A stretch of DNA of 64,000 bases from a virus: IMG/VR virus record IMGVR_UViG_3300009702_000001, positions 1 to 64,000 of that record; one strand, given 5' to 3'. The notes beneath the pieces were generated by a model. The model searched no databases. It saw only the letters and a program-made list of their open reading frames with translations, and was not told the origin of the DNA. Positions within the stretch are counted from its first letter, which is position 1; every line of letters begins with the position of its first letter. Shown here piece by piece: positions 27,719-50,232 of the stretch. The position numbers were made by a program, and so were the translations under genes.

Positions 27719-27721
27719 TGC

Positions 27722-27883: not shown

Positions 27884-27886
27884 TGT

Positions 27887-28347: not shown

Positions 28348-28396
28348 GGACCTAATATCCCAGGGGGGCAGGACTTCCGCGCCCCCCTGGGGGCCG

Positions 28397-31340: not shown

Positions 31341-31378
31341 TTATCCATGCTCCCGCAATCAAAAAAAATGAATGACTT

Positions 31379-31624: not shown

Positions 31625-31669
31625 TTTCTTACCTCCTTGTCCGAGACCCCAAGCGAAAAACTTGAATGT

Positions 31670-31891: not shown

Positions 31892-32595
31892 CGTTCTTCC
31901 CTTTCCATGAACGGCCGGTCAATCAGACAAACCGGCATAGAATCCGTTACCCTGTTAAAGACTCGGACAATATGTTCCGGGGCTTCATTCAACAACCATT
32001 TGCCTTGACGGAAACGGATTTCTTCCCGGAGCAAGGAACCGATTGCCAGGGCATCCGAAACGGCTTCCTGATAGACCTTTGCCATTTTGCGAAACTCGGC
32101 AAGCATAGGGCTTCCGGTTTCTTCCATGACCGCAACTGCCCGTTCAATCATATCATCCTTTTCGGCATCCCCGCGCCCGGTCCAAAACAGTTTGACCGAA
32201 CCCGGATGATAGGTCCGGACCTTGTAACCGTGCTCCCAAAGCGCAAGCCGCAAGACACCTCCCAATTCACCTATCTGTAATTGCCCCCCTCCCCTCCCCC
32301 CGCTCCCAAAAGTATAGTCTTCCAATCCTATCATTGACGGATGCCAAGTCCGGCAATGGGACAAAACCATTTCCCGGACAGTATGAAGCCGAACCATCCT
32401 TGCGCTTTCGTCCGCAAGTTTAACCTTGGGAAGAAGCGTTGCCCGAGCAATCTTCTTTGCCGTCCCGGCCGCTTCCGTGCAAACGGCAAAGCCGGTCAAG
32501 ATGCCGTCTTCAATCCGAGCAATACCCGTCCCCTTTGGCGACGGGTCGATAGCAAGAATCCTTCCGGAAATTCTTTTTAGTCTTTTCCTACGCAT
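31888..32595 (-). CDS. RuvC-like Holliday junction resolvase
   Basis: ILAIDPSPKGTGIA and IGLEDYTFG fit the RuvC acidic-residue pattern. ATG 32595 is preferred over TTG 32601. Confidence 0.7.
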   Translation of the reverse strand: MRRKRLKRISGRILAIDPSPKGTGIARIEDGILTGFAVCTEAAGTAKKIARATLLPKVKLADESARMVRLHTVREMVLSHCRTWHPSMIGLEDYTFGSGGRGGGQLQIGELGGVLRLALWEHGYKVRTYHPGSVKLFWTGRGDAEKDDMIERAVAVMEETGSPMLAEFRKMAKVYQEAVSDALAIGSLLREEIRFRQGKWLLNEAPEHIVRVFNRVTDSMPVCLIDRPFMEREER

Positions 32596-33142
32596 TGACA
32601 ATATGCGCCCATTTTTCGCCGCTCATTATTCTACAAACCATACTTGGAGAAATACCATACTTAGAAGCAACCAACTTTTGTTGCGTCCCGCCATTGACCA
32701 GCCTTACAATCTCAATAACGGTCATTTCATCCAATTTATTTCCCCCGCCGTTTTCAGTCCCCCTAGCAACCGTTCCGTGAATCATCTTATCATCATTGTT
32801 TTCTTTCGCCGTTCCCCAACGCAAATTCCTCAATCTATCATCAGAATTAACACCGTTGCCGTGACAAACCTGTAAGTTATCCCGATTGCCACGAAATGCA
32901 ACCAATACCAACCGAGCAACGCGAAACGTCAATTGACTTCCGTTTTTGCATAAACTAACTATGTTATATCCGTCCTTGTCCGAAGCACACTTTAAGACTC
33001 GCCCGTTATGAATTCTAGTCACCCCGGTATTATAAGTAACCTTCCTGTCAAGGCTTCTAACGCGCCCTAAATTTGAAACTTGATATACTCCAATGTACTC
33101 GGAAATATCGCGCCAAACTTCTTTGCTTTTTAATCGTTTCAT
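32588..33142 (-). CDS. HNH homing endonuclease (NUMOD4 plus HNH_3 plus C-terminal HTH)
   Basis: WRDISEYIGVYQVSNLGRVRS (NUMOD4-like), VCHGNGVNSDDRLRNLRWGTAKEN (HNH) and an HTH-like tail. Confidence 0.8.
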   Translation of the reverse strand: MKRLKSKEVWRDISEYIGVYQVSNLGRVRSLDRKVTYNTGVTRIHNGRVLKCASDKDGYNIVSLCKNGSQLTFRVARLVLVAFRGNRDNLQVCHGNGVNSDDRLRNLRWGTAKENNDDKMIHGTVARGTENGGGNKLDEMTVIEIVRLVNGGTQQKLVASKYGISPSMVCRIMSGEKWAHIVNA

Positions 33143-33145
33143 TTA

Positions 33146-33430
33146 TCAATTGCTAGAATCCGGCTCGGATTCTTTTTTAATCGCTTGCGCTTCATAGTTG
33201 GCAATCATTCTTTCGGCATACAATCGGGCCGCTTCAATGTCATCAAATTCTTCCCCGTCTTCATCGGTCATATGGGCAACCCTGTCCCCGTCAAAACAGG
33301 CTTGCAAGACAACCCAACATTCCCCGTCATGGAAAATGAAGATTTCTTCTTCATACCCTTCCCCGAAAAGGGAAAGGTCCATGTAAAGCAAATCGGAACG
33401 GGTCCAAGGAATTTCAATTTTTTCGGTCAT
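33146..33430 (-). CDS. acidic hypothetical protein
   Basis: 94-aa ORF between the two HNH genes, with ATGA coupling. Confidence 0.55.
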   Translation of the reverse strand: MTEKIEIPWTRSDLLYMDLSLFGEGYEEEIFIFHDGECWVVLQACFDGDRVAHMTDEDGEEFDDIEAARLYAERMIANYEAQAIKKESEPDSSN

Positions 33431-33951
33431 GGTTCAACCCAACTTTTGTTATTAACTATCTTGTTAATTACGGAATGCGAAACGCCATATTCAACTGATA
33501 GTTGCTTTTGCGAAACGTTGCCGTCCAAGTAACGTTCTCTGATTTGTTTAACCAAACCCCACGTCAAAACAGACCTTCCGTTTCCTTCTCCCCTTGTATC
33601 GGTTCCATGTATGAACCTATCACCTTGGTTGTTCTTCGGGGTATCCCAACAAAGATTATTCAATCTATTGTTTTTAGGATTGCCGTCTTTGTGCCTTGCT
33701 TCCATCCCATCCGGACAAGGACCAACGAAAGATAAAAGAACCAACCGACAAACGCGGATTGTCATCCGTTCTTTATCAATACAAAGAACAACAACGGGTC
33801 TATCGGACTTGTCTAGTCCGGCTTTCAAAATGCGCGTCTTGGTTTTCGCTACACCCTTTCGCATAACCCAACGCGCAAGACTTTTGACTCTACCAAGATT
33901 TGAAACCTGATAGTAACCTTCATAATCCGGTATATCTTTCCACTGTTCCAT
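33427..33951 (-). CDS. HNH homing endonuclease (paralog of 32588..33142)
   Basis: WKDIPDYEGYYQVSNLGRVKS and ARHKDGNPKNNRLNNLCWDTPKNN. ATG 33951 overlaps the SbcC-like TAA by 1 nt. Confidence 0.8.
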   Translation of the reverse strand: MEQWKDIPDYEGYYQVSNLGRVKSLARWVMRKGVAKTKTRILKAGLDKSDRPVVVLCIDKERMTIRVCRLVLLSFVGPCPDGMEARHKDGNPKNNRLNNLCWDTPKNNQGDRFIHGTDTRGEGNGRSVLTWGLVKQIRERYLDGNVSQKQLSVEYGVSHSVINKIVNNKSWVEP

Positions 33952-36038
33952 TATATCCAATCAACCGTAGAATATGCGCCTTGCCTAGTTACCGCTATTC
34001 CATTTTCAATCAGGTCAAGAATTTCTGAATTATGCGAAATCCAAAAAATTTGTTTGATGCCGTATTCCTCGGTTAGAATATGCAAGATAACATCAATAAC
34101 GGCTTGCCGGTTTACGGGGTCAAGCATCCCCGCGATTTCATCCAAGACAATCGGGGGGACTTCACCGCTTCCCTGCCGGACCTTGAAGAACAATAGGGCA
34201 AGCCGGACGGCAAATGAAATCAGGGTTTGCCCCCCGCCCGAGTCAAGGGAAAAGTCTGATTGGGTTCCTTCGGCCGCGTCATGGATTATCAAAACAAGTT
34301 GTTCAACCCGCTTCCGTTGCCGGGGTTCTTTGCAGATAGAGCACTTGCGTTCCCTCGGGGAGAATTCCGAACCGCAAGCAAGGCAAGAAGATTCAAAATT
34401 CTTTGTTTCTCGGTATGGCCTAAACTCAATTGACAAGCCACAATTCATCCGGCTCAATATGTAATTGATATCCGATTCAAGCGTTTCGAAAGCCCCCTTG
34501 ATAAATTCGTTTGGAATCCCCCGGTCCCCGAACATGAATTTGCAATATTGCCAAGCTCCCAGGTCAAGCCGCGCCGCTTCAAGCGACTTCCCAATCCGTT
34601 CCTTCCGCTCGGCATAATCCCGCGCCCGTTGCGCCGCGTCTTGAAAAGCTCGGGCCTCTGTTTCATACTGTCCCAACAACCTATTCAATCTTTTGATTTC
34701 TTCTCCGGCATCCATCTTTTCATTGTTGATTATCCCCACGTCCCTTCCCCCGTCAGGAATCTTACTATTGACGGCTTGCAACCAACCGTCAAGCCGGTCA
34801 AGCATTTCTTCAAGCCTTTGGGTATCCGTGTTCCCGAGTCCCCGCATTTTGCCTTCCAGGGCTTGAATGGATGATTCGATTTCTAGGACTTCTTCTTCCT
34901 GCCGTCCCTTTATTTCATCAAATTCTTCCCGCGCCGCTTCATACACTCCCCGCATTTCCCCGGCGCGTTCCTTCAAGCTGTTCGTTTGTTCGGGGTCAAC
35001 CCGTTCGCACGGTTCACTCAATACAGGGCAAACCCCACCCGTTTGTTTCGCCGCTTGGTAACGGTCCCGGGCTTTGTTCCTTGCGTCCCGAACCGTCAAA
35101 TATGCGTCCCGCGCCGCTTGCAACTTCTCCGCTTGCTTAGCCTTGACTTCCTTCAATCGCTTACGTTCGGACCGGACTTCTTCTTCAAGTTGTAACTTCT
35201 TTTCCGCGTTCCTTTCCGCTTCTTCAAGAGCCGCTTCAACTTCCGTGATTTGGTCCGTTAGTTGCTTACGCTCAACCATTGCTTGCGCCGCTTTTATCAC
35301 CTCCCGATACTCGGCTTTCAGGGCTTCAAGTTTTTCTTCCGCTATCTTGATTTCCTCCCGCGTAATTTCGGCCGCGTCTTTGGCTTCTTCGGCTTGGGCT
35401 TCCAATTCTTCCGGGTCCCCTTCTGGCTCCGGCAATGCGTTTAAGGTCCCCGCCAATTGTTGGGCCTTGTTACTCGCCTCCCCCGCCCTTTGTTTGGCAA
35501 ACTCGGACCGGACTTCCCAACGTGTTTGGTCTAACCAATCAAGTAACAGTCCCCGCTTTTCCTTCGGAGTTGAAACCATAAAAGAGTGAATATCCCCTTG
35601 GGAAAAATAAGCCGTATTTTTATATTCCTCATGAGAAAATCCAATCAACTCAGCAATACGTTCGTTGACTTCTGCCCAGCCCGAACCTTCAAAGCCGGTA
35701 ACGGATGCCGTCCCCTTGCCGTCATTAGTCCGGCTCCGGATGATTTCTATTTCCCGCCCGTCTTGCAAGACATAGATTCCCCGAACCTTCATTCCTTCCC
35801 CGGCCGCTCGGGCAGTCCGATTAATTAGCTTGCCATGATGCCGCGTCCGCGCCTTACCGAATAACAAGTATTCAATTGCTTCGACAAAGGTTGATTTGCC
35901 TGCCCTATTGCTCCGGCCAGAATCTTCTTCGGCTTCATAGCGTCCAACCAAACCGACAACCGGATTGGACTCGGGGAAAAGCAAATGCGCTTCCCGGATG
36001 ATTCCGAAATTCTGGATTTCAATTTCCCTTAGAAACAT
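33951..36038 (-). CDS. sbcC: SbcC/Rad50-family ATPase
   Basis: Walker A SNRAGKSTF, a long coiled-coil, signature-like SLDSGGGQTL, Walker B PPIVLDEIAGMLD, and Cys pairs in the coil (CPVLSEPC). Confidence 0.85.
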   Translation of the reverse strand: MFLREIEIQNFGIIREAHLLFPESNPVVGLVGRYEAEEDSGRSNRAGKSTFVEAIEYLLFGKARTRHHGKLINRTARAAGEGMKVRGIYVLQDGREIEIIRSRTNDGKGTASVTGFEGSGWAEVNERIAELIGFSHEEYKNTAYFSQGDIHSFMVSTPKEKRGLLLDWLDQTRWEVRSEFAKQRAGEASNKAQQLAGTLNALPEPEGDPEELEAQAEEAKDAAEITREEIKIAEEKLEALKAEYREVIKAAQAMVERKQLTDQITEVEAALEEAERNAEKKLQLEEEVRSERKRLKEVKAKQAEKLQAARDAYLTVRDARNKARDRYQAAKQTGGVCPVLSEPCERVDPEQTNSLKERAGEMRGVYEAAREEFDEIKGRQEEEVLEIESSIQALEGKMRGLGNTDTQRLEEMLDRLDGWLQAVNSKIPDGGRDVGIINNEKMDAGEEIKRLNRLLGQYETEARAFQDAAQRARDYAERKERIGKSLEAARLDLGAWQYCKFMFGDRGIPNEFIKGAFETLESDINYILSRMNCGLSIEFRPYRETKNFESSCLACGSEFSPRERKCSICKEPRQRKRVEQLVLIIHDAAEGTQSDFSLDSGGGQTLISFAVRLALLFFKVRQGSGEVPPIVLDEIAGMLDPVNRQAVIDVILHILTEEYGIKQIFWISHNSEILDLIENGIAVTRQGAYSTVDWI

Positions 36039-36041
36039 GAT

Positions 36042-36413
36042 TCAAAATTGGCGCCCGTGTTTGTAGGAACGGCCCTTGTTATATTCAACTTTCGTCACTA
36101 TCGCGCCGGCAACGTTCAATCCCCTTCCGGCTGCGAAGTCGAAAATGCGTATAATGGTATCGGCTAATTCTTCTTCAACTTGACTATATCCCCGCGCTTT
36201 TTCGGATTGGGGATTACCATCCCGCAATGCTTCAAGTGTCTCTGATAACTCGCTGTGCATAAGCGCAATCATTTCAGCGTCATTTCGCTTTTGACCTTCC
36301 AATTCAGAATCCCAAAATCCATGACTGATATTGATATCATGTATATACTTTTGAACCCTCATTGTGTGTTCAGTCCATTTAATCAATTCATCTTGAGTCA
36401 TTTCATTATCCAT
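36042..36413 (-). CDS. MazG-like nucleoside triphosphate pyrophosphohydrolase
   Basis: MHSELSETLEALR...EEELADTIIRIFDFA (EExxE/D pattern). ATG 36413 follows AAAGGGGAG. Confidence 0.7.
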   Translation of the reverse strand: MDNEMTQDELIKWTEHTMRVQKYIHDINISHGFWDSELEGQKRNDAEMIALMHSELSETLEALRDGNPQSEKARGYSQVEEELADTIIRIFDFAAGRGLNVAGAIVTKVEYNKGRSYKHGRQF

Positions 36414-36426
36414 TTCAACTCCCCTT

Positions 36427-37551
36427 TCAAATCGCTTCTTCAAGGGCTCGGAACGCCCGTTCAATTACCGCGTCCGAGTTGCTCGGCTTGCGGACCTTGA
36501 CCCAATGCTTTACCGCCTCCTTGTCCGACATAGAAGCCGAAACCAAAACGGCTTCTTTTTCATCTCGCCTAACAATTGTTGGGGTTATCTTCCTAACAAA
36601 TTTGGCGCCGGCTTCAACAAGGGCAATGTTAAAATCTTCAAGGTCAACAGTTTCTTGTTGGTCTTGAGTCATTCTGATTTTCACTTTGACCCCCGCCCCT
36701 TCAATATCCTCGGGGTCAAAGTCGAAAGTAATCGGGCCGTCATGGTCAACAAAATCATATTCAAGTTGGACAAGCGGCATTGCCCCCGAGGGATGGGGGG
36801 TAACCGTCAAGTCATCTTCCCCAACGTCAATCAACAAGAAACGCTTATCCCGAATATCTCCGAAGTCCGTAACGACCGGAGCCCCAACAATCCAATGCCC
36901 CGGGTTCTTCCGGACCTTTTGCGGACGGTGAATATGCCCCGAGAAAACCCCCATTATGTCCGCTTTGAAAAGACTGTCCGGGACCTTTGCTTCAACGGGT
37001 CGCAAGATAAAATCATCATGGACTTCCGCGCCGCTCGGATTCAAATGTGTAAAGGCAATCGCGTTCCCCCGGGCTTCTTCAAATTGGTCCCCGAGTCCGG
37101 AAACGAAACCGTCAAGGTATTCGTCAATTGAAACCTTCCCCGGGATATTGGACCGGGACAGGAACGGAAGGTAAACAACCAAACTGTCATCAATCCAATC
37201 ATAGTCCGGAGCAACAACCGGCTTGACTTTAGATAGGTTCAATTCCGCCAACGGGGCAAGGCTTCCATATGGGTTCCCTTCCCGGTGTATTGCATCATGG
37301 TTCCCGAGCAAAAAACGTGATTCAAACCCCGCGCCTTCCAACTTCAAAAACAGGTCAACCCAAAGACCATGAATATAACTTGAAGGGTTTGAAGTATGCC
37401 CAAGGTCCCCGCCATGAATGAAACAGTCAACCCCCTTCCCGATAGCAAAGTTGACCGCTTCATTCATTATGGAATGAATTTCGGGAGTCCGGTCAAAGCC
37501 CCCCGATTTCAAACCATAGTGGGCATCCGATATAAAAAGAATCCGCGCCAT
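36427..37551 (-). CDS. sbcD: SbcD/Mre11-family nuclease
   Basis: Calcineurin-like phosphoesterase motifs ILFISDAHYG, HGGDLGH, LGNHD, FTHL and SGHIH. Confidence 0.85.
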   Translation of the reverse strand: MARILFISDAHYGLKSGGFDRTPEIHSIMNEAVNFAIGKGVDCFIHGGDLGHTSNPSSYIHGLWVDLFLKLEGAGFESRFLLGNHDAIHREGNPYGSLAPLAELNLSKVKPVVAPDYDWIDDSLVVYLPFLSRSNIPGKVSIDEYLDGFVSGLGDQFEEARGNAIAFTHLNPSGAEVHDDFILRPVEAKVPDSLFKADIMGVFSGHIHRPQKVRKNPGHWIVGAPVVTDFGDIRDKRFLLIDVGEDDLTVTPHPSGAMPLVQLEYDFVDHDGPITFDFDPEDIEGAGVKVKIRMTQDQQETVDLEDFNIALVEAGAKFVRKITPTIVRRDEKEAVLVSASMSDKEAVKHWVKVRKPSNSDAVIERAFRALEEAI

Positions 37552-37553
37552 GA

Positions 37554-37847
37554 TTACAACCCCAACAACGCTTCAAGCGTTTCCCGTTCACTCGGGTTCA
37601 ACGTCCGCGTCCCAACTTCCAACGTCCGGATTTCTTCTATTACAGCGGCAACGGCAAGCTGAAAATGAAACCGGATTACCGGATCCCATACCGTTGTGGA
37701 AACCCCCAGGTCCCGAAGAAATACGTTGACCCGTTGGATATCCCCGGGGGAAAGCGTATTGAAGACCCGTTCAAGGGCTTCGTTATTCGTCCGAGTCTTC
37801 ATCTTCTTCCGAGTCATCGGAAACAACGGCTTCAATCGCCGTATCAT
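37554..37847 (-). CDS. hypothetical protein (start uncertain: ATG at 37847, 37817 or 37802)
   Basis: The ORF overlaps the 3' end of the RecA-like gene. Confidence 0.4.
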   Translation of the reverse strand: MIRRLKPLFPMTRKKMKTRTNNEALERVFNTLSPGDIQRVNVFLRDLGVSTTVWDPVIRFHFQLAVAAVIEEIRTLEVGTRTLNPSERETLEALLGL

Positions 37848-39078
37848 TCAATTCGGCAATCATTGAATCAACCGCTTCCGGTCGTGTTCGCAACCAATCA
37901 ACGAAAGCCGCGTCCCCTTTAATACGACCGTCCGGCAAAAGGTTATGCCGCCAAATTCCCCCGGTCCCCCGAACAATCGGGGAGTTTTCCCCGCGCAACT
38001 TTGCTTCTTCTATGATTTGCTCGGCATAGTCAAAACCGATTGGGTAACCCCCGCGTCCCTGCCCCATGACGAAACGGAAGCGGTCCGCGCAAACCCCAAC
38101 CTTGTTTTTTTCAATGATGCCTTGACAGATTTGAGCAACAACAACCTTTTTGCCGGAAACGGTCCGCTTCTTTGTTCCAACAACTTGAACGCGGATTACC
38201 ATCGTTGAATCATAAATCAAAGACTCCCCGCCTTTGACCCGGTATTTCTTTTCAAAGATACCGGCATCCAACTTGACCTTTTCATGGGCAAGAACAACGA
38301 ACAGAATCGGAAGGCTTCCAACAATAGGGGTAAGTCTATCCATCCAAACCGTGTTCATCAACGCCCGGAGCGGATAGCCCTTCCCGACTTCGGACAATTC
38401 CTTCAATTCATTTTCGGGGACAAGTTTGTTGATTGAATCAACGACGAAAAGAAGACAACGGTTCGGATGAATGTTGCCCTTGTCCCTGCCGGCCCGAAAG
38501 TTGTTGATGTATTTTTCAACCTTGGAAGTTGTTTCTTCATACGTCAACGGGGCAACATATTCCATTTGCTCGGGGTCAACCCCACAATGGGAAACAAAGG
38601 TCTTGTCAAGCGTATGTTCGGCATCAATGTAAACCCCGAAATGCGCTTGAAGTTGAAAGGAACGCATAAGCCCCAAGCAAAAAGCAGTCTTGCCCCCCTT
38701 GCTCGGACCGTGAATTGCGGCGATGCAATTCATCGGGGCGCCCCCCGTTCGGATTGCCCGATTGAATCCCGGAAGGATGGTTGGGACAATGATTGAATCC
38801 GCCTTGTCTACAAAGCGAATTGCCCCCGTTCCCTTCCCGAGTATATCCAATTCAGACTTGATATCCGGGATTGCTCCCCCTGGCAACGCGGCCCCGGACC
38901 ATGACTCGGATTCCTTCCGCTCGGGCTCGGGCTTACTCCGGGGCTCCGGGCTCGGGGTCCCTGCCGGGGCTTTGGTCTTCTTCACCTTGCGGACCTTCCG
39001 GACTTTGGGCTTGGGCTTTTCGGGCTCGGGGTCAAGGTCATTGATAGAAGACCCCTTGGTAATGTTGAAATCGGGCAT
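37783..39078 (-). CDS. RecA-family recombinase with basic N-terminal extension and acidic tail
   Basis: Walker A GPSKGGKTAF, YIDAEHTLDKTF (compare RecA FIDAEHALD), Walker B LLFVVDSI. Confidence 0.8.
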   Translation of the reverse strand: MPDFNITKGSSINDLDPEPEKPKPKVRKVRKVKKTKAPAGTPSPEPRSKPEPERKESESWSGAALPGGAIPDIKSELDILGKGTGAIRFVDKADSIIVPTILPGFNRAIRTGGAPMNCIAAIHGPSKGGKTAFCLGLMRSFQLQAHFGVYIDAEHTLDKTFVSHCGVDPEQMEYVAPLTYEETTSKVEKYINNFRAGRDKGNIHPNRCLLFVVDSINKLVPENELKELSEVGKGYPLRALMNTVWMDRLTPIVGSLPILFVVLAHEKVKLDAGIFEKKYRVKGGESLIYDSTMVIRVQVVGTKKRTVSGKKVVVAQICQGIIEKNKVGVCADRFRFVMGQGRGGYPIGFDYAEQIIEEAKLRGENSPIVRGTGGIWRHNLLPDGRIKGDAAFVDWLRTRPEAVDSMIAELNDTAIEAVVSDDSEEDEDSDE

Positions 39079-39105
39079 ACGGGCTTCCTTCCGTTGGTTG
39101 GGATA

Positions 39106-39127
39106 GGGGAGCCCCGAAGGGCTCCCC
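39106..39127. repeat. GGGGAGCCC-N4-GGGCTCCCC hairpin element (copy 4)
   Basis: Perfect 9-bp stem with a UUCG loop on the minus transcript, between the SSB extension and the RecA-like RBS. Confidence 0.7.
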
Positions 39128-39169
39128 GCGTCCCCTGGGGGCCGTTATGGGGCTTCCGGCGCATCCCCA

Positions 39170-39379
39170 TCAAAAGGGGACTTCATCTTCATCTTCTTCA
39201 AATTCCGCGCCGCAATGGGGGCATTCCGTAGCATCGGAAGCAACCAACTTTTCACAAGCCGGGCATTCTTCCATTTCATTCCCGTCTTCATCCCCGTCTT
39301 CACCTTCATCGGACTCGGGCTCCGGAGCCGTCTTCTTCTTCGGCTTGGTTTGTTTGCTTGCCGATTTCTTTGCTTTGGG
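39170..39379 (-). CDS. 69-codon frame continuing the SSB ORF past its TAG (K/P/E linker, CPAC-N10-CPHC ribbon, tail EEDEDEVPF); alternatively a 34-aa ORF from ATG 39274
   Basis: Codon-by-codon hand translation. It is in the same frame as 39380..40765 and ends at TGA 39172..39170. Confidence 0.4.
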   Translation of the reverse strand, partial: PKAKKSASKQTKPKKKTAPEPESDEGEDGDEDGNEMEECPACEKLVASDATECPHCGAEFEEDEDEVPF

Positions 39380-40765
39380 CTACAATGGGTCCGCGCCGGA
39401 AGCGGTTTCATCTTCCGAAACCAATTCATCCCCGTCCAAGAAAACCCGTTCCCCGTCCGAGTCCGAGAAAACACCTTTTTCCTTTGTATGGTTGTAACGG
39501 ACAAAAGTTAGTTTGTCCCCATCTTGGGTAAAGTATTCCTTCCCCTTGACGCAATCAGTTACCTTTGTCGGTTCGGGCGCCGCGTCCGGCGCGTCTTCAT
39601 CCCCGTCTTCTTCGGGCTCGGGCTCGGCAGTCCCGGCCGGCATGATTTCTTCCCCGGCAGGAATCTTGACCTTCAACCCGTCTTCATCCTTGGCAATGCC
39701 GATTTTCTTTTTGCCGTCCCATTTAACGAATTCAACGGTTTCATCTTCATAGATGTAAGACTCCCCAGGTTCCGCGTCTTCAACGTCAACCGGGGCCGGC
39801 TTGCTTGACTTCTTCTTCGGGGCTTTCGGTTTGCTCGGGGGCTTGGGCTTGGACTTCTTCGGGGGCTCGGGCTTGGACTTCTTCGGGGGCTCGGGCTCGG
39901 GCTCGGGGGCCGGCTTGGGTTTCTTGGAATTCTTGACCTCGGGCTTGCTTGCCGTCTTCTTTTTGGTCTTCTTCGGCTTACTCGGTTCCTCGGTTTCAAC
40001 GTCCGTTCCAAGCAACGGGCAGTCAACAACGCACATTGCCCGGAGCAAATCGGTTGACGTTCCCGCATCCAAGTCTTGCGCGGAACCCGGGTCCGTATAT
40101 TGCGTCATATCAACCGCTTCTTCATCAAACAGGTCCCGGACGGCTTCCGTCAACGGACGCTTGACCGTTCCGGCCCCATACATATCGGTTCCCCGTTCAT
40201 CCTTGTCAAAGGTAACTTTGCAAGCATATGGGTTTTGCCAGGGGTCGCCTTCATCTTCCCCCAATTCTTCAATTTCTTCATCCCAAACCTTGTTTAATTT
40301 CTTGCCGGCCGAATACGGCAAAACCAAGACTTCGGGACCCTTCGGTTTCTCCCCCTTTTCGGTAACGTTGATGATACAGAAAAGGTATTCAGTCCGGGGA
40401 CGCATCAACCGCTTGCGCCAATCATACCCCTTCATTCCCAACAATTCCCCCTTCAAGTATTCTTCTTCATCCCCCCCGGCAGTCTTCAAGCGCAAAACAA
40501 CGTCATCCGGGTCAATGTCCGGAGTGTCATTCTTCAACCAAAGAATGAATTGATTGGTAATGTCCGAGTCCCCTTCATAGAAACGACGGATGCCCTTGAT
40601 TTCTTCTTCACCGTCATCATTTTCAACAACGCGCCGGAGCGTAACGGTAACCCGCTTTTCAATCTCGGACTTCGGATGAACAAAGAAAATAACCTTTCCA
40701 TCCTTGCGCCAATCCGTAAACGCGGCCCCCCGCTTTGTATCCGCTCCAAATTGCTTCCTGTCCAT
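39380..40765 (-). CDS. gp32-like single-stranded DNA-binding protein
   Basis: By-eye similarity to T4 gp32: GKVIFFVHPKS, EYLFCIINVTEKGEKPKGPEVLVLPYSAGKKLNKVW and GDPWQNPYACKVTF. Long K/P/E linker. Adjacent to the RecA-like gene. Confidence 0.6.
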   Translation of the reverse strand: MDRKQFGADTKRGAAFTDWRKDGKVIFFVHPKSEIEKRVTVTLRRVVENDDGEEEIKGIRRFYEGDSDITNQFILWLKNDTPDIDPDDVVLRLKTAGGDEEEYLKGELLGMKGYDWRKRLMRPRTEYLFCIINVTEKGEKPKGPEVLVLPYSAGKKLNKVWDEEIEELGEDEGDPWQNPYACKVTFDKDERGTDMYGAGTVKRPLTEAVRDLFDEEAVDMTQYTDPGSAQDLDAGTSTDLLRAMCVVDCPLLGTDVETEEPSKPKKTKKKTASKPEVKNSKKPKPAPEPEPEPPKKSKPEPPKKSKPKPPSKPKAPKKKSSKPAPVDVEDAEPGESYIYEDETVEFVKWDGKKKIGIAKDEDGLKVKIPAGEEIMPAGTAEPEPEEDGDEDAPDAAPEPTKVTDCVKGKEYFTQDGDKLTFVRYNHTKEKGVFSDSDGERVFLDGDELVSEDETASGADPL

Positions 40766-40791
40766 GATTCTTTTTCCTTCCGTTGGTTGGT

Positions 40792-41388
40792 TTACTTGTC
40801 GCGGCTTCCGTGCCTTTGTTCAACGAAAAGCCCCTTGCGTTTCTGAATCAACTTGCCGTAACTTTGCAAGCTGGAAAGTCTACCTTCATAGGCTTCAAAC
40901 AATCGCCTTGCCGCGTCCCGCAATCGTTGGGACTTCCGCAAAACTTCCCGCGCCGCTTTATGCTCGGGGATATGTCCGGCAACCCAACGTTCAACGTCCG
41001 CAGTATAAACCCCGCCTTCCCATTTTTTATTCTTCTTCAACGTTGCGATTTCTTGCCGCGCCCGAGTAACCCAAATTCCCATCAATGCTTCATAGTCATC
41101 TTTGACCCGTTCATAATCCTCGGAAGCAACCGCGTAAATAAATCCGGCAAGGCGCATATCTTCCGGCGCGTCCCCAATCAGTTGACGCAAAACAGATTCC
41201 CCGGAAGTTTTCAAGTCCGTTTGTAATCGCTCCAATAATTTGGGGTAGACTTCCGCTATTGCCAAATGATTCAATTCATCATTCAAAACACTGTAACGGG
41301 TAGGATGGGGAGGGGCAATGGGCGCCGGCTTTTCCGGCGCGTCTTGTTGCTTCAACTTCTTCCGAATCTTTTTCAGTTTCTTGGGCAT
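40792..41388 (-). CDS. hypothetical protein
   Basis: ATG 41388 (MPKKLKKIRKK...) overlaps the dnaE TGA by 1 nt. Confidence 0.6.
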   Translation of the reverse strand: MPKKLKKIRKKLKQQDAPEKPAPIAPPHPTRYSVLNDELNHLAIAEVYPKLLERLQTDLKTSGESVLRQLIGDAPEDMRLAGFIYAVASEDYERVKDDYEALMGIWVTRARQEIATLKKNKKWEGGVYTADVERWVAGHIPEHKAAREVLRKSQRLRDAARRLFEAYEGRLSSLQSYGKLIQKRKGLFVEQRHGSRDK

Positions 41389-44300
41389 CAATCATCCCCC
41401 TCGGTATTCGCTTGATAATAGCGTTCAAAGGACATGACAGGACTTTTGCCGGATGAAGTATTCAAAAAATATCGGCGCGTCTTACCGTGTTCAACGCGGC
41501 TTTTCAAATGAAGAAGCGTCAAGGTCCCGGGCTTAATTCGCTTTGCATATGTTGTGTAATCGCTTGGCCACAATACAACGTCCCGAAAGGCGCCGGTCCA
41601 ATCCTGGCAACAAATGGTCATCATACGTTGACGCTTTTTTGTCAACCTTGTTTCCGCCGAAACGATAAAAACGCAAGTCCGAAACTTCCGCTTACCCTGT
41701 TCAAAATTCTTGATTGCTTCCCTGTTTTCCAACCATGAACGGAACCCGGCAAAGGGGTCCCGCATAATAAAGGCTTCCGGGGTCCCGGGCTCGGGGCGCG
41801 TTGCTCCGGGTTCCATCAACGCCCCCAGGTCAACAACTTCCCCGGCCCCGAGTTTCCAGAATCCTATGCTATGTCCAACAACGGCAAGCAATTTTCCAAC
41901 CGCAAGATTCCCGGCGCCAATGCGCCCAAGTTGGGCAACGGAAGTCCGTAGCGTTAGGGCTCCCGTGTCATCTTCAAGAATTACCTTTCCAATTCTGTTT
42001 TCGTAAGAATTTCCGTCTTCATCTTCCGAGCCCGGACCTTGGGCGCCCGGCCGGGATTCCTGATAGAATTTTACCTTTGTTACCGTCCCAACGAAGGCAT
42101 GATAAATTGAAGAAAACTCCCCATCAAACAGGGATTCAAACCGGCCGATTGGTTGAAAGGTTATATGTTCGCAACGTTCCGTCAACCAATCAACGGCTTT
42201 ACGGGCCGGATGAATACTCGGGGGAAGTGATACCAATTCAAGTTGATATTTTTCCCGTTCTTCCCCCGTGTATTGTCCCGCGTTCAAGTCTGCCGTCAAG
42301 GCATCTTCGGGGACCTTCAACAAGCCTTCATCTTCTACCTTGCTCCAATACTTGTCTTTAAGATGGGGCTTCTTCCGCGTCCGAATTTTCAGGATATCAA
42401 TGACGTTTGCTTCAACGTGTTTCGGGTCTTCAACAAGACGGTCAAGGGCTCCGATTCTTAGGAAGGCAACAACGGCCGTTCGGTTGGCGCCGCTCCGGTC
42501 AATGAAGTCCCGAAAGGATTTGTAAGGGGCGCCGGCAACAATCTTGTCAACCGTTTTTGCCCCAACCCCTTTCACGTCAACCAAGCCGGCCCGGATGGTA
42601 TTGGGCAAGTCCGGGTCAATGACGTAACTGAAACCTGAAATATTAACGTCCGGAGCCGTAACCGTTAGCCCGAGCCGTTTTGCTTCCCGGATATATAGGC
42701 GCCGCTTTTCCGCGTCCGATTCGGCTTCCAATGCCGAAGTCATAAATTCAAGGGGGTAATGAATTTTCAGATACATTGTCCAATATGAAAGGATTGAATA
42801 CCCCGTTGCATGGGCTCGGTTGAAACCATATTGTCCAAACTCGGCAATCTGATTCCATAGTTTTGAAGCGGTCCGTTCGGGGACTTCAAACCGCGCCGCG
42901 CCTTCAACGAAACGGTCAAGGTAAGTCCGGCGCAAATATTCAACGCCTTTTTTCTTCCCAATGTCCTTTCGGATTCTGTCCGCTTCCCCCCAGGTAAATC
43001 CCCCAATGTCGTGAACAATTTTGATAACATCTTCCTGATAAACCATTAACCCATGGGTTGCGTCAAGGATTTCATCAAGCATCGGATGAAGGGACTTGGT
43101 TTTTTCCCCATGGCGCCGCTTGACATATTCGTCTGTTATACCAGCATTCTGGGGGCCGGGTCTAATCAAAGAAGTTGTTGCAACCAAATGGTCAAACTTG
43201 TCCGGGCGCAATCGTTTCAACAAACGGATTGCCCCAAACTGATTCATTTGCCAAACCAATTCGGTATTGCCTTCCGCAAAGTTTCGGTAAACTTCCGGGT
43301 CATCTAATTCCCCCCAATCCTCGGGTTCGATTTTCTCCCCCGTCCGTTCTTCAACCAAGTCAATGCAACGCTGGATATATTGCAAACCGTTAATTCCGAG
43401 AATATCCAACTTCAATAAACCGACCGCTTCAACTTGTCGCTTGTCCCATCCAACAAGGTATTCCCCCTTTCCCGCCTTTTGCATTTGAACAGGGACAAGG
43501 TTACGCAACGGTTCATCCGATATGACAAGACCGGCCGCGTGAACCCCGAGTTGCCGGACGTTCCCTTCAAGTTTCACGGCATGATTTACAACATGGGGCC
43601 ATTTCCTTTTATACCATTGCGTTTCAGGAAACTCGGTAAACGTGTCCGCAAGGCATGAAAACGCCCGTTCATCCCCGTCCGGACGTTGAAGAACCAACTT
43701 GGTAACGGACTCCGTTTTCTGCCAAGGAACGTCATGGACCCGGCCAACGTCTTTTAATACAAGCCGGCCCTTCATCCGGCCGAAGGTTGAAATTCCGGCA
43801 ACGCGGGAACGTCCGTAACGCGCTATCAAGTAACGCTTGATTCTGTCCCGCGCCGCGCCGGCAAAGTCAAGGTCAATATCCGGATAGTCAATCCGGTCCG
43901 AGTTGATGAAGCGGGAAAACGGACAAGCATATTTCACAGAATCAAGGGCAGTGATACCTAGAAGAAATGCAACAAGGGAACCCCCAACGCTTCCGCGTCC
44001 CGGCCCAACCCTGATTCCGTTGCGCCGCGCATATTTTACCAAGTCCCAAATGACAAGGAAGTAACGGGAGAAACCCAAACGGGTTATCATATCCATTTCA
44101 AACTTGACCCGTTCCGAATATACTTCCCGCAAGGGGGCTTCCCTCGGGAGCTCCCCGTCAACCCAATCAATGATTCCGGTTTTGCCCTTGCTCTTTTCAT
44201 TGATACCGCGCCATTTCCAACCGTCCCGAACCAACCCCCAAAGTTTCTTGTCCGGCTCCCCGTCATACTTGTCTTCAATCTTCAACAGGGGTAAGACCCC

Positions 44301-45290
44301 TTTTCGGTATTCCAAAACGTCCGGTTCAATGCGTTCCGCAATGTCAACTGTTACGTCAAGGGCTCGGGTCCAAACTGCCGTATCAATTTCCGGATGAAAT
44401 TTCTTGAATGACTTTTCCATTTCCGCCCGGCTTTTCAGATACAACTGATTAGTTGGATACCTGAAACGCTTTTCATCCGTAACCAAAACGGACTTGCCCC
44501 CCTGGGATTCCCGGAGCGCAAGCAAGATATCATGGGTTTCATAATCCTCGGGGTTCAAATAATGAACGTCATTGGTTGCGACCAATCCCGCGCCCGATTC
44601 CCTGGCAAGCCGAATCAACTGGGGATTCATATCAACTTGGGTATCAATGTCATTCGGTTGGATTTCAATGAAAAAGTCCGAACCGAAACAGTCAACCATT
44701 TCTTCGGACCATGACAACGCACCCTTGTAATCCCCCCGCGCAATCAGTTGACCGGGAACACCCCCCAAGCAAGCCGTCAAGACAACAACGTCCGGCGCAA
44801 GTTTTTTTAGGATAGGATAGTCAATCCGAGGGAAGTAATAGAACCCTTCGGCATGGGCCAATTCAACCGCCCGAATCAACTTCCGCCAACCCGCGTTATT
44901 CTTTGCCAAGCAAACAACATGACTCCGGCGCCGGACCCCTTGCAAGTCTTCAAGGGCTTTGACCGCTTGCCTTGCCGTCAACCCCTTATCTTTTGCTCCG
45001 GCTTTGGCAACGGCTTTGTCTTCATCGGACAACCCGCGTTTATGTCTATCGGGAACAATGTAGAATTCACAACCGACAATCGGCTTTACCCCTGCCCCCT
45101 TCAAGTCTTTGACGAAATCAAAAACCCCGTTAATGTTTCCGTGTTCCGTCATGGCATGGGCTCGGAATCCCCGGCGCCGGAGCGTTGCCCCAAGCCCCTT
45201 GACTTTGATTATTGAATCTAGGAATGAATATTCCGAGTGATTATGTAAGTGAATAAAGGGTTGGGTCCGAACCTTCAACTTCTTCGGCAT
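41388..45290 (-). CDS. dnaE: DNA polymerase III alpha subunit (DnaE-type)
   Basis: PHP domain FIHLHNHSEYSFLDS, GPGRGSVGGSLVAFLLGIT, and polymerase core and OB regions. Start moved to ATG 45290 (MPKKLKV...), because the upstream 23 codons cross a hairpin. Confidence 0.9.
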   Translation of the reverse strand: MPKKLKVRTQPFIHLHNHSEYSFLDSIIKVKGLGATLRRRGFRAHAMTEHGNINGVFDFVKDLKGAGVKPIVGCEFYIVPDRHKRGLSDEDKAVAKAGAKDKGLTARQAVKALEDLQGVRRRSHVVCLAKNNAGWRKLIRAVELAHAEGFYYFPRIDYPILKKLAPDVVVLTACLGGVPGQLIARGDYKGALSWSEEMVDCFGSDFFIEIQPNDIDTQVDMNPQLIRLARESGAGLVATNDVHYLNPEDYETHDILLALRESQGGKSVLVTDEKRFRYPTNQLYLKSRAEMEKSFKKFHPEIDTAVWTRALDVTVDIAERIEPDVLEYRKGVLPLLKIEDKYDGEPDKKLWGLVRDGWKWRGINEKSKGKTGIIDWVDGELPREAPLREVYSERVKFEMDMITRLGFSRYFLVIWDLVKYARRNGIRVGPGRGSVGGSLVAFLLGITALDSVKYACPFSRFINSDRIDYPDIDLDFAGAARDRIKRYLIARYGRSRVAGISTFGRMKGRLVLKDVGRVHDVPWQKTESVTKLVLQRPDGDERAFSCLADTFTEFPETQWYKRKWPHVVNHAVKLEGNVRQLGVHAAGLVISDEPLRNLVPVQMQKAGKGEYLVGWDKRQVEAVGLLKLDILGINGLQYIQRCIDLVEERTGEKIEPEDWGELDDPEVYRNFAEGNTELVWQMNQFGAIRLLKRLRPDKFDHLVATTSLIRPGPQNAGITDEYVKRRHGEKTKSLHPMLDEILDATHGLMVYQEDVIKIVHDIGGFTWGEADRIRKDIGKKKGVEYLRRTYLDRFVEGAARFEVPERTASKLWNQIAEFGQYGFNRAHATGYSILSYWTMYLKIHYPLEFMTSALEAESDAEKRRLYIREAKRLGLTVTAPDVNISGFSYVIDPDLPNTIRAGLVDVKGVGAKTVDKIVAGAPYKSFRDFIDRSGANRTAVVAFLRIGALDRLVEDPKHVEANVIDILKIRTRKKPHLKDKYWSKVEDEGLLKVPEDALTADLNAGQYTGEEREKYQLELVSLPPSIHPARKAVDWLTERCEHITFQPIGRFESLFDGEFSSIYHAFVGTVTKVKFYQESRPGAQGPGSEDEDGNSYENRIGKVILEDDTGALTLRTSVAQLGRIGAGNLAVGKLLAVVGHSIGFWKLGAGEVVDLGALMEPGATRPEPGTPEAFIMRDPFAGFRSWLENREAIKNFEQGKRKFRTCVFIVSAETRLTKKRQRMMTICCQDWTGAFRDVVLWPSDYTTYAKRIKPGTLTLLHLKSRVEHGKTRRYFLNTSSGKSPVMSFERYYQANTEGDD

Positions 45291-45389
45291 AGCGTCCCTG
45301 TAATGCCCATGACGGGCCGCAAGGGGCCGGGGGTCACAATCCCCCGGCCCCGGGGTCAAACGCTTCCCAGGGCTCCCCTGGGGGACGTG

Positions 45390-46538
45390 CTAGGACAATT
45401 TCAGGGATTGCAGGATATCGGCCCCGGCTTCCTTATGGAAATCCTCGGGGGTCGGTTCCCTATCCGGCATACTCGGGGCATCAATCCCAACGTTAAAGTC
45501 CCGAGCAAGATGAAGGGTCCGGCCGTTGACCATACCTTCCCCCGTGGCATCCGTCATCCGGCGCCTTTCAACGGCCGTCCAATACTTAGACCATGAACAA
45601 CGCGCCCGGTATTGGGCAAGCATAACAAGCCGGGCAATGTTGTCCGGGGCTCGGTTCCAAAGGTCATGTATAACGTTTCTGTTTACCGCTTTCCTTTCGT
45701 CCCCCCTGCCGGCCGTCTTGCCCCCAGCATTATCCCAATGGGACTTCAACTCGGCATAAGGAACCCAAGACCCAAGGAAGCGGTCCCAACGTTCCCCGGT
45801 AAACAACTCCCGGAGTTTGGGAGAATCCGTCCCTTCGGAGTTGCGCCAAAACGGCTTGTTACTCGGGGAGTAAAGCCCCCCGTTTTGAACAACGGTATCA
45901 ACGGCAAGTAACATCAACCGTTGAAAAGGAATGCCCCTTGTATCCCAGGAATCAACGCCCGGAAGGTCCATAACGATTCGCTTGGCAATGGACCAAATAA
46001 CCTTGTCAAAATATTTGCACTGGGCTTGAATTCCGTAAGGGGAACCAAACCATTTTGCAATTTCTTCATCAATGGTCATTTTGTCCGACTTGTAATACTT
46101 ATCCGCAAGTTTCTTGTTACCCCCTAGTTTCAGGATTCGCAAACAAGACCCATGACGGTTTGCTTGCATAACCCCATAGTTTGCCCCTGCACCGTCCGCA
46201 ATCTTTGAAGCCCGGCCGAAGGCATTATGGGAACCCGCGATTTCATAGAACGCAATAACTTCCATGATTCGCTTTTTCAAACCCGGTTCCCATCCTTGCG
46301 CGGTTGCTTGTGTCAACAACTCGGTTGACGTTTCCGGACCAATGATTCCGTCCGGTCTTGAATTGAAGTTGTCTTGAAAGTTTTTGACTGCCGTTGCCGA
46401 GCCCTTCCCATATATGCCGTCAATACGCTTGTCATAGTAACCCAATTCCTTCAAGCCAAGTTGATAGGAAAATACGGCCGGGCGCCGCGTCCAAACTTCC
46501 ATCCATACCGGGGACAACATAGAAACTTCCCGCGCCAT
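45390..46538 (-). CDS. PG-binding domain plus GH46(chitosanase)-like putative cell-wall hydrolase
   Basis: LKELGYYDKRIDGIYGKGSATAVKNFQ (PG_binding_1). AFYEIAGS...IADGAGANYGVMQ resembles the GH46 E...DIGDGRGYT core. By-eye call. Confidence 0.55.
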   Translation of the reverse strand: MAREVSMLSPVWMEVWTRRPAVFSYQLGLKELGYYDKRIDGIYGKGSATAVKNFQDNFNSRPDGIIGPETSTELLTQATAQGWEPGLKKRIMEVIAFYEIAGSHNAFGRASKIADGAGANYGVMQANRHGSCLRILKLGGNKKLADKYYKSDKMTIDEEIAKWFGSPYGIQAQCKYFDKVIWSIAKRIVMDLPGVDSWDTRGIPFQRLMLLAVDTVVQNGGLYSPSNKPFWRNSEGTDSPKLRELFTGERWDRFLGSWVPYAELKSHWDNAGGKTAGRGDERKAVNRNVIHDLWNRAPDNIARLVMLAQYRARCSWSKYWTAVERRRMTDATGEGMVNGRTLHLARDFNVGIDAPSMPDREPTPEDFHKEAGADILQSLKLS

Positions 46539-46577
46539 GATTCAAGCCCTTCCTGCCGGGTCATTCCCGGCCGTTGG

Positions 46578-47156
46578 TCAATTGGGTTCAACCCCGTTTT
46601 CTTCCAACCAATTCAAGACCCAAGCGGCAACGTCATTGACGGAAGCCCCTTGGACAACAGTTTCAGAAATGCTTTCCATTACGGAAACTACAAGGTCAAC
46701 ATGGGATTGATTCAACCCGTAGTAAAGCAATGAAGCCGCCCGAGTTGGAATATCGTACAATTCCCCCGTTAGGAAGTAATTGATTTCCATATCGGCCGCG
46801 TATGCTTTCGCTTCAAAGTCTGCCCGAGCGGACCGGCTTACAACGTAATCAACGCAGAATTCAACCGGCCCGTCTTCATACTGTTCACAATGTACCAATT
46901 CATGCGTCAAAATCATTACCTGGGATTCAAGGTCCCAACCCCCATCTTCAACGCCAATGTCAAAGGGCCGGTAAATGGTCCGGCCGATTGTTGTCGTGAA
47001 CCGTTCAAGGAAGTCTTCTTTGTCTAGGACTCCGATACCGTCAAGGAATCCCCCAACCGCTTCCATGAAATCCGAATCTTCTTTGTCAACGGACTTTGCC
47101 CCGAAATGGTCAAGGGCTTCCGCCCATAACTTGCGGACTAATTCAGGGGTAATCAT
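46578..47156 (-). CDS. putative zinc metallopeptidase (HExxH)
   Basis: ILTHELVHCEQYEDG. ATG 47156 forms an ATGA overlap with the upstream stop. Confidence 0.5.
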   Translation of the reverse strand: MITPELVRKLWAEALDHFGAKSVDKEDSDFMEAVGGFLDGIGVLDKEDFLERFTTTIGRTIYRPFDIGVEDGGWDLESQVMILTHELVHCEQYEDGPVEFCVDYVVSRSARADFEAKAYAADMEINYFLTGELYDIPTRAASLLYYGLNQSHVDLVVSVMESISETVVQGASVNDVAAWVLNWLEENGVEPN

Positions 47157-47389
47157 TTCTTCACCGTTGCCTTGCAACCGCATTTGACCTTCCCGCCTTC
47201 AAGACGGCAACAACAATTGAACGGTGTTTTTGTCCGCTTCAACTTGGAACAGTCTTGAACCCGAGTCCATTTCTTATCCGGTCTGCAAATTTCAACGGTC
47301 ATTCCGTTGCACCGTTGCGCCCCCGGCCGGCATGGATTACAAGCGGCAAGCAACGCGGTTGTCCCCAGGGCAATCAATAGGGCTTTCAT
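47153..47389 (-). CDS. small Cys-rich lipoprotein
   Basis: MKALLIALGTTALLAAC has a lipobox (LAAC). The mature part contains 11 Cys. Confidence 0.55.
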   Translation of the reverse strand: MKALLIALGTTALLAACNPCRPGAQRCNGMTVEICRPDKKWTRVQDCSKLKRTKTPFNCCCRLEGGKVKCGCKATVKK

Positions 47390-48195
47390 CGGCTCCCCCC
47401 TTTCGTTGTTGCAACCGTCCGAGTCCGAGGAACAGGGGCCGGAGTCCGAGGCCGGATAGCAAGGGCTCGGACCTTTGCATCAAAGGCTTTCGTTTGTCTT
47501 TGAACAATGCCATATCTTCGGCATAGGCGTTTGACGTAATACGTCAAGGGTCGCTTTGAACCCGTATTGTAATGACCGTATTGATACAATTTCAATTGCG
47601 TTTCCCGTGGTAACTTACAACCCGGAATCAATCGGGGCTTGATTCCTCGCTTGTTTGCGTTATTGATATGGGCTCGGATTTCATAAGCGGCAACATATGT
47701 CCCAAGGATATAGTCCCGCAATTCGGGAATTGAAAACCGACCAATCTTCCGGCGCCGGTCTGCAATGCTTTGGTCTTGACAGGTCCCCCGCTTCATTCCG
47801 CGCAACCAACGGGAACGCAACCAACGGGGAAGCATCTTCGGGGGCTTGCATCCCCGCAACGATTTCCGCGCCGCAATGACAGGACTATCCAGGGGAATCA
47901 ATTGCCAAACCCCAACTTCCGCTGCCCGTCTTGTCCCCGGAATTCCCTTTGCCCATGGTAGGAAGTTGCTTTCTGTCCAAGCAACGGCAACCAAAGCAAT
48001 CGGGTCTAACTTGCGCCGCTTTGCTTCAATCAGAATTCGGGAAGCATACCAACGGGCAAACTCCCCCCGGAAGGAAACGCGCCGAAACTTGGGGGCAATG
48101 CGTTGAATTGAAGCCGCCAACGCGGCTTCGCTCGGGACGTGGTTTGAAACGGTTTGCCCTTGAAGGGCAATCAAAAGAGTCATTACTTGCAGCAT
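47386..48195 (-). CDS. lytic transglycosylase (SLT domain)
   Basis: VAVAWTESNF (catalytic Glu), GVWQLIP and YGHYNTG. Confidence 0.75.
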   Translation of the reverse strand: MLQVMTLLIALQGQTVSNHVPSEAALAASIQRIAPKFRRVSFRGEFARWYASRILIEAKRRKLDPIALVAVAWTESNFLPWAKGIPGTRRAAEVGVWQLIPLDSPVIAARKSLRGCKPPKMLPRWLRSRWLRGMKRGTCQDQSIADRRRKIGRFSIPELRDYILGTYVAAYEIRAHINNANKRGIKPRLIPGCKLPRETQLKLYQYGHYNTGSKRPLTYYVKRLCRRYGIVQRQTKAFDAKVRALAIRPRTPAPVPRTRTVATTKGGSR

Positions 48196-48210
48196 TCCTT
48201 TTTCCTTTCG

Positions 48211-49348: not shown

Positions 49349-49349
49349 T

Positions 49350-50231: not shown

Positions 50232-50232
50232 T

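Follow-up and report, generated by a model that had tools for sequence, protein, structure and literature searches.

An in-frame TAG in a phage single-stranded DNA-binding protein gene is very probably a private nonsense change or consensus error rather than a site of programmed read-through

The window analysed here is a stretch of 64,000 nt (positions 1 to 64,000 of the virus record IMGVR_UViG_3300009702_000001 in IMG/VR), and the locus in question is the gene for a gp32-like SSB (single-stranded DNA-binding) protein on its minus strand. The SSB open reading frame (ORF) at 39380..40765(-) starts with ATG at 40765 and ends after 461 codons with TAG at 39382..39380. Past this TAG the frame remains open for 69 sense codons up to a TGA at 39172..39170, and translation returned the peptide as the initial annotation had written it: a Lys/Pro/Glu-rich linker, a CxxC at extension residues 39–42, ten further residues, a second CxxC at 53–56 and the terminal EEDEDEVPF. 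Three explanations had been offered for this arrangement, namely programmed UAG read-through, a formerly continuous gene interrupted by a recent nonsense mutation or by a sequencing error, and an independent 34-aa zinc-ribbon gene starting at ATG 39274, which is residue 36 of the extension. The results given below make it very probable that the second is right, and that the TAG is an ordinary nonsense mutation or consensus error in a 531-codon SSB gene, not a programmed read-through site. The parts of the gene, all on the minus strand, are as follows.

39383..40765, minus strand: SSB body, codons 1–461 up to the premature stop; identical to protein P0001 of the JGI assembly, with homologues 48–75% identical over the full length
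40001..40765, minus strand: predicted gp32-like core binding single-stranded DNA (ssDNA), about residues 1–255 (AF2 model and Foldseek)
39635..39784, minus strand: first small SH3/Tudor-like beta-barrel, about residues 328–377, after a K/P-rich linker (AF2, Foldseek)
39410..39574, minus strand: second SH3/Tudor-like beta-barrel, about residues 398–452, a tandem duplicate of the first (AF2, Foldseek)
39380..39382, minus strand: premature TAG, codon 462, differing from GAG (Glu) by a single coding-strand G-to-T
39173..39379, minus strand: the 69 cut-off codons, the protein's ancestral C-terminal module, comprising a linker, the zinc ribbon and the acidic tip; residues 463–531 in P0016, the protein of a sibling assembly
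39212..39265, minus strand: CxxC-N10-CxxC zinc ribbon (Pfam Zn_ribbon_3)
39173..39199, minus strand: acidic tip EEDEDEVPF, similar to the C-terminal tip of bacterial SSB (translation and homologue alignment)
39170..39172, minus strand: TGA, the true stop of the ancestral 531-codon gene
39278..39280, minus strand: codon AAT, Asn496, another private substitution (Asp to Asn, from GAT), lying 102 nt downstream of the TAG
39106..39127, minus strand: stable hairpin GGGGAGCCC-UUCG-GGGCUCCCC, about 40 nt after the TGA

By our own arithmetic, a random stretch of 69 codons would stay open after a stop with a chance of about 4%, (61/64)^69. The extension is not such a chance open frame, because it both matches a Pfam model and aligns over its full length with the C-termini of homologues. 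The Pfam match (Zn_ribbon_3, 29.7 bits against a gathering cut-off of 27, E 4.2e-7) bears out the CxxC-N10-CxxC ribbon noticed earlier. At its extreme C-terminus the extension carries an acidic run closed by a hydrophobic residue, Pro and Phe, as does the C-terminal tip of bacterial SSB (SSB-Ct).

Homologues were searched with the read-through fusion of body and extension as the query. Nine proteins (P0002–P0010) of 500–525 residues, 48–75% identical, cover 89–100% of this fusion in profile or BLAST alignments. The column that holds the TAG in the window is occupied in these proteins by E, A, S or D within a motif DPL[E/A]P, and each of the nine closes with a zinc ribbon followed by an acidic tip whose last letters are F or FD. 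At the DNA level the window reads CCATTG-TAG-CCC where the related loci L001 and L002 have TTG-GAA-CCG and CTG-GAG-CCC, respectively; across the homologues, codon 462 is GAA, GAG, GCA, AGT or GCG. The stop is thus not conserved: every complete homologue has a sense codon at this site, and all complete close homologues run through it as one continuous ORF, which is what the initial annotation had proposed to look for. More distant IMG/VR relatives (L006, L008, L010, L011) are likewise single ORFs, ending in -SPF or -FPF.

The closest comparison comes from the same phage in other assemblies. Clustered at 90% identity, the 461-aa product is joined by a single protein, P0016, of 531 aa, which is found in Logan and ENA contigs, the ENA assembly being ERZ27249683 (run SRR6056608). 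It is the read-through sequence of the window with Glu at position 462 and with Asp instead of Asn at position 496, a column filled by D or E in the close homologues. The source contig of P0016 is 87,436 nt long and that of the window 87,621 nt; the differing end points of these two assemblies of about 87.5 kb suggest a circular or permuted map. Over window positions 29170..50765 the Logan contig differs from the window by 6 mismatches and no gaps (99.97% identity), and further ENA and Logan contig stretches widened the comparison to 14793..64000, or 49 kb. Wherever ENA and Logan both cover a differing site, they agree with each other. At position 39382 the plus strand has A in the window and C in the sibling assemblies, so that the sibling gene reads GAG where the window reads TAG. 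Five mismatches within about 100 nt of an ENA contig end (window 14848–14884) were left out of the count; they sit in a C-rich repetitive stretch and are probably a contig-end artefact. With these set aside, the window carries 15 private substitutions and no indels in 49 kb, at the following positions.

Private sites, first part: 17879, 18495, 19064, 20468, 20557, 20573, 24262, 39280
Private sites, second part: 39382, 40826, 43391, 44620, 46191, 56057, 57466

On the coding strand, from sibling to window, the spectrum is G>A six times, C>T twice, G>T three times, C>A three times and A>G once, and accordingly 14 of the 15 replace a G:C pair by A:T or T:A. Thirteen of the 15 lie in genes, as 9 missense changes, 3 synonymous ones and 1 nonsense change, which is the TAG itself; the long-term changes on the window's branch of the SSB gene amount to 71 synonymous vs 39 non-synonymous. 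At all five sites that could be polarised (Pol R224Q, Pol D634N, S188F in a 199-aa protein, E462* and D496N) the conserved residue is that of the sibling, and the residue in the window is derived. The private set looks like raw mutation or error as yet unfiltered by selection, with the TAG as one of its members. The changes are clustered: three of them fall within 106 nt at 20468–20573, and the SSB tail holds a pair within 103 nt. The candidate causes of the differences are damage, strain mixture or young mutations.

Whether the TAG is a real allele or a consensus artefact is a separate matter, on which we lean slightly to a real allele, because 15 substitutions without indels in 49 kb (a rate of 3e-4) exceed the error expected of a well-covered short-read consensus by our own estimate, made with platform and coverage unspecified. 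That the T at 39382 arose in consensus building, read correction or damage within one assembly is nevertheless a genuine, if minority, possibility. Two independent re-assemblies, an ENA k141 contig and Logan, agree on GAG, and the private differences cluster and are derived in the window alone wherever polarity can be read. Cytosine deamination and guanine oxidation yield G:C to A:T or T:A changes, the classes to which 14 of the 15 belong. Set against this artefact are the rate just given and the fact that a G:C-to-A:T bias combined with mostly non-synonymous changes is equally the look of very young real mutations. For a second family member, moreover, the assemblies from JGI and ENA are identical over 4,190 nt, a weak control that is too short to calibrate a rate.

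The same comparisons bear on programmed or functionally used UAG read-through, by which the gene would yield two isoforms, mostly a tail-less SSB and a fraction with the tail. In its favour, the extension is intact and in frame, and the TAG falls in an interdomain linker. An in-frame, coding-like extension is, however, equally explained by a gene that was continuous until very recently; neither a 99.97%-identical genome nor any homologue has the stop, and it arose together with other apparently unselected changes. Local features do not help this explanation either. A 121-nt stretch over the TAG and about 100 nt downstream folds no better than shuffled sequences (z +0.49). The initial annotation had pointed to a weak termination context, and a C does follow the TAG; this context is not distinctive, because ordinary genes of the window often end in it, with a C next in 6 of the 13 other ORFs that stop at TAG. 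The window encodes tRNAs for Glu(UUC), Gln(UUG) and Leu(CAA) at 26774–27160(-), the same three as the sibling, and no suppressor tRNA (CUA) was found in the 64-kb window or the sibling stretches. The phage tRNA-Gln(UUG) mentioned earlier is indeed present, at 27002..27072(-); its role as a reader of UAG is pure speculation. Even with the evidence from a sister clade, described below, counted in its favour, read-through of this kind appears quite unlikely. A frameshift route around the TAG was also considered and rejected, there being no slippery run at CCATTGTAGCCC.

Reassignment of TAG to an amino acid, whereby the gene would simply be continuous, deserves next to no credence. Nothing speaks for it beyond the single in-frame TAG, whereas genes of 1323, 1008 and 695 aa lack an in-frame TAG, no tRNA(CUA) was found in the stretches covered, and gene calls in the sibling give the same lengths. 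TAG ends 14 of the 82 long ORFs in the window, and behind most of these a further stop, or the start of the next gene with its Shine-Dalgarno (SD)-like sequence, comes within a few codons. Relatives also stop this same SSB gene with TAG.

The third explanation, an independent zinc-ribbon micro-gene of 34 codons from ATG 39274, is highly improbable. The ATG has a purine-rich stretch upstream, and its Met is conserved in P0002–P0007. In every relative, however, this Met is internal to the long ORF, no relative has a separately initiated ribbon, and the DNA upstream is not conserved: the SD-like stretch differs in L001 and L002, and by one base in the sibling. On the coding strand no promoter- or terminator-like site was found between the TAG and ATG 39274, and the exact 34-aa peptide matches no called protein in the collection.

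Once the TAG is seen as a private change, the question becomes what the 69 codons represent. An exhaustive profile search gathered 901 representatives at 50% identity with E up to 1e-3, and tail statistics were taken over 166 family members. The ribbon, kept in 9 of 11 first-round homologues, lies within the last 110 residues of 138 of the 166 members; the final residue is F in 94 and the final pair is PF in 72. Among the C-terminal tetrapeptides, DIPF (21 members), EIPF (9) and DVPF (5) are the most frequent, which substantiates the earlier comparison with an SSB-type tip. Because the relatives are continuous and ribbon and tip endings are common in the family, the 69 codons form a conserved C-terminal module and no mere add-on. 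Its tip may recruit partner proteins.

The label "gp32-like" held at the level of fold and failed at the level of sequence models. With the 461-aa body, neither Pfam nor PHROG returned a family up to E 0.1, a null covering one scanned family member, the window's protein; a profile search against PDB sequences gave zinc-ribbon-level noise only and matched no solved gp32 chain. GenBank phages returned no match by blastn with the gene or by tblastn with the core. IMG/VR searched with the single protein gave nothing, and searched with the family alignment gave distant relatives only. An AF2 model of residues 1–262, built from 15 homologues, has a mean pLDDT of 86.1, and its top five Foldseek matches in the PDB are all gp32 chains (1gpc and 8gme_A/B of T4, 2a1k_A/B of RB69), with E 1.5e-4 to 2.5e-3 and probability 0.98–1.0; the match ranked next drops to probability 0.06. 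Structure matches in BFVD include annotated phage SSBs. The TM-scores of the gp32 matches, 0.37–0.53, point to a distant relationship. According to this model, the core is a distant gp32-type SSB at the fold level, for which sequence searches gave no gp32 match, and the window protein would be expected to bind ssDNA.

Between core and tail lie two small barrels (residues of about 328–377 and 398–452), 30% identical to each other as a tandem duplicate. The block is modelled by AF2 at pLDDT above 90, and Foldseek relates it weakly (E about 2e-3) to tandem Tudor and SH3-like domains. We know of no described SSB with tandem SH3/Tudor-like barrels placed between a gp32-like core and the tail.

A different situation was met in a sister clade of the family. 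The called proteins P0011 and P0012 seemed naturally tail-less, and their tail was then found in the -1 frame. Sister-clade DNA was available for three loci from three samples, covering 3 of 8 called proteins; with P0011, P0012 shares 51% identity and P0022 47%. The end of the gene reads CCT AAA AAA AAA GCG TAG in L023 and GTA AAA AAA AAG TAG in L024 and L025; each locus has exactly nine A's, with the stop of the 0 frame 0–1 codon later, and every one of the clade's 8 called proteins has KKK, KKKA or KKKE at its C-terminus. The -1 frame of all three loci encodes a zinc ribbon and an acidic tip in F/FD and runs up to a RecA-like gene, with the endings ...DDENDSEF, ...EDGEDSIF and ...SEDDPLFD. 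The positions of the A9 junction and the -1 tail, which belong to these relatives and not to the window, are given here.

L023:5327-5472: A9 junction and -1 tail
L024:1530-1664: A9 junction and -1 tail
L025:4302-4456: A9 junction and -1 tail

Hairpins occur downstream in L024 and L025 (z -1.1 to -2.0) and none in L023. Rfam returned no family on the sister-clade loci, and no further sister-clade DNA was found in IMG/VR or GTDB genomes. A AAA AAG is the slippery heptamer of dnaX, and A9 is the tract of transcriptional slippage in Thermus dnaX. The sister clade thus probably uses programmed -1 frameshifting or transcriptional slippage, which would give tail-less and tailed SSB isoforms; a literature search found no report of programmed recoding in an SSB gene. 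The window has a homopolymer of this kind neither before nor after its stop (CCATTG TAG CCCAAA, with no A-run).

That the sister clade parts the same tail from the body at an equivalent linker, by an A9 run and a -1 frame change, is the remaining point in favour of read-through in the window. It also bears on a truncation allele favoured by selection, for instance through evasion of a host defence that senses phage SSB. Natural tail-less products would make such an allele conceivable, and E462* and D496N both fall in the 69-codon module, where by our own arithmetic about 0.06 would be expected. Phage SSBs are known to trigger defence systems (PMC10732053; bioRxiv 10.64898/2026.02.22.705581). 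Against selection, the tail is conserved in most of the 166 family members, and two other private changes, Pol D634N and S188F, alter conserved positions of genes unrelated to this one, a picture of mutational load more than of targeted adaptation. Escape alleles of gp32 that arose by truncation or nonsense change are not mentioned in the AbpAB paper (PMC10732053). Altogether, a selected truncation is judged very unlikely.

Several points weigh against the view that the TAG is an ordinary nonsense change or error. Gaps of less than 110 nt between neighbouring private sites number 3, where about 0.46 were expected, so that a purely random process is inadequate, and 2 of the 15 changes lie inside a tail module of 210 nt. 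The extension is fully intact, with its four Cys, acidic run and -PF, as predicted by a recent origin of the stop and by ongoing translation alike. Finally, the sister clade appears to make tail-less as well as tailed isoforms, and a tail-less product is then not necessarily dead. In a broader form of this thought, the family as a whole would control the attachment of the ribbon and tip module, and the amber allele of the window would be viable, giving mostly tail-less protein and a trickle of the long form through a leaky UAG-C; this we consider unlikely.

The surroundings of the gene are in keeping with an end at the TGA. A 101-nt stretch containing the hairpin GGGGAGCCC-UUCG-GGGCUCCCC folds at -48 kcal/mol (z -2.1), and the stem is near-identical and at the same place in L001. 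Having no T-run, the hairpin is at most a candidate terminator; lying 3' of the TGA and not after the TAG, and conserved in L001, it fits the view that the gene ends at 39170 and that this is the real 3' end of the gene unit. On one flank the SSB gene has a DnaE-type DNA polymerase III (PolIII) alpha subunit and a 199-aa ORF, on the other a RecA/UvsX-like recombinase and an Mre11/SbcD-like nuclease. The gene order around SSB is the same in L001, L005 and L018, and the locus belongs to a phage module for replication and recombination.

A 17-nt motif, CCAACCAACGGAAGGAA, occurs as exact repeats at 40774–40790(-) and 39085–39101(-), directly upstream of the SSB-like and RecA-like starts, and as a one-mismatch copy at 57990–58006(-). 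With up to 3 mismatches allowed, 7 matches were found vs 0.38 expected, and the core AACGGAAGG of the motif also stands upstream of the SSB gene in L001 and L004. We read the motif as an extended ribosome-binding region, with a translational operator common to these genes as another possibility. In two relatives the start of the RecA-like gene lies at the very end of the SSB frame: at L004:2755-2770 it overlaps or directly adjoins the stop that closes the long SSB frame (TTTTAATG), and at L023:5464-5478 the sequence TTC TAG ATG places it next to the SSB stop in the -1 frame. This layout suggests that in some relatives (L004, L023) the recombinase is translationally coupled to the tailed SSB isoform.

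With the TAG taken as a nonsense change or consensus error, 39170..40765(-) would be a single gene for a phage SSB of 531 residues, with the domain order gp32-like core, Lys/Pro-rich linker, two SH3/Tudor-like barrels, second linker, zinc ribbon and -VPF acidic tip. In this assembly one G-to-T has turned the GAG of Glu462 into TAG inside the last linker. Ribosomes would be expected to terminate at codon 462 as they do at the other TAGs of the genome, and the product would be a 461-residue SSB that has the core and both barrels and lacks the ribbon and the partner-binding tip. By analogy with the delta-21C form of T7 gp2.5, this SSB should still bind ssDNA, perhaps tighter, but fail to recruit partners, and full-length protein would be made only via background read-through. 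The allele, if real, would be young and probably deleterious; it might be carried by complementation or have been sampled before it was purged.

In practical terms, the 461-aa "SSB" and the 300-nt "spacer" behind it are best annotated as one 531-codon gene broken by a private base change, and not as a case of recoding. The finding in the window itself is an ordinary one, a known kind of protein carrying a nonsense change. Of wider bearing is the family to which it belongs, a large group of SSBs (the 901 representatives) that would combine a gp32-like core with a zinc ribbon and with a tip (DIPF) that copies the bacterial one almost perfectly. Such an ending suggests that these phages may plug their own SSB into the partners that bind an SSB-Ct, either host proteins or their own DnaE-type replisome. 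The sister clade, if its expression is as proposed, would represent programmed recoding in an SSB gene, parallel to dnaX tau/gamma in giving products with and without a partner-binding end.

Several known systems resemble parts of this picture. Programmed stop-codon read-through, of which the UGA between the Qbeta coat and A1 is an example, shares with the window an in-frame stop followed by a functional in-frame extension. In the programmed cases known to us the stop is conserved among relatives, whereas that of the window is absent even from a 99.97%-identical genome. The likeness to dnaX tau/gamma concerns the sister clade only: its three loci have an A9 run with a stop of the 0 frame 0–1 codon later, and, as in dnaX, the reading frame would determine whether a replication protein has its C-terminal partner-binding module. 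In dnaX the shifted frame gives the short product, while in the sister clade it would give the long one; the window gene has a stop codon only, with no A-run or frame change. Frameshifting in dnaX of E. coli and transcriptional slippage in that of Thermus are both confirmed in a source that gives neither sequence (PMC3290774).

Among SSBs, gp32 of T4 and RB69 provides the top structural matches to the window core. Both proteins have an acidic C-terminal region, and the window gene stands beside a UvsX/RecA-like recombinase in a replication module. They differ in that the window protein has no detectable sequence similarity to gp32 in the Pfam, PHROG and PDB searches and reaches TM-scores of 0.37–0.53 only, and in that it has, beyond the core, two SH3/Tudor-like barrels, a separate zinc ribbon at the C-terminus and a -PF tip. 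To our knowledge, the domain layout of T4 gp32 includes neither SH3/Tudor-like barrels nor a C-terminal zinc ribbon or -PF tip. The C-terminal region of gp32 recruits partners, according to PMC11551737.

T7 gp2.5 is likewise a phage SSB with an acidic C-terminal tail, which contacts replisome proteins and modulates ssDNA binding; its delta-21C form binds ssDNA more stably and loses regulation (PMC10359462). It belongs to another fold family and has no zinc ribbon, and its truncation is an engineered deletion, whereas that of the window is a natural nonsense change. With the DDDIPF of bacterial SSB-Ct, the EEDEDEVPF of the window shares an acidic run and a hydrophobic-Pro-Phe end after a flexible linker, and DDDIPF of E. 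coli SSB is described in PMC5872125 as the conserved hexapeptide that engages partner proteins. The window protein differs from bacterial SSB in its gp32-like core, which has no match to the OB domain PF00436, and in the zinc ribbon that precedes its tip. Overall, by these analogies, it would resemble a phage SSB of the gp32 or T7 gp2.5 type equipped with a tip in the style of bacterial SSB.

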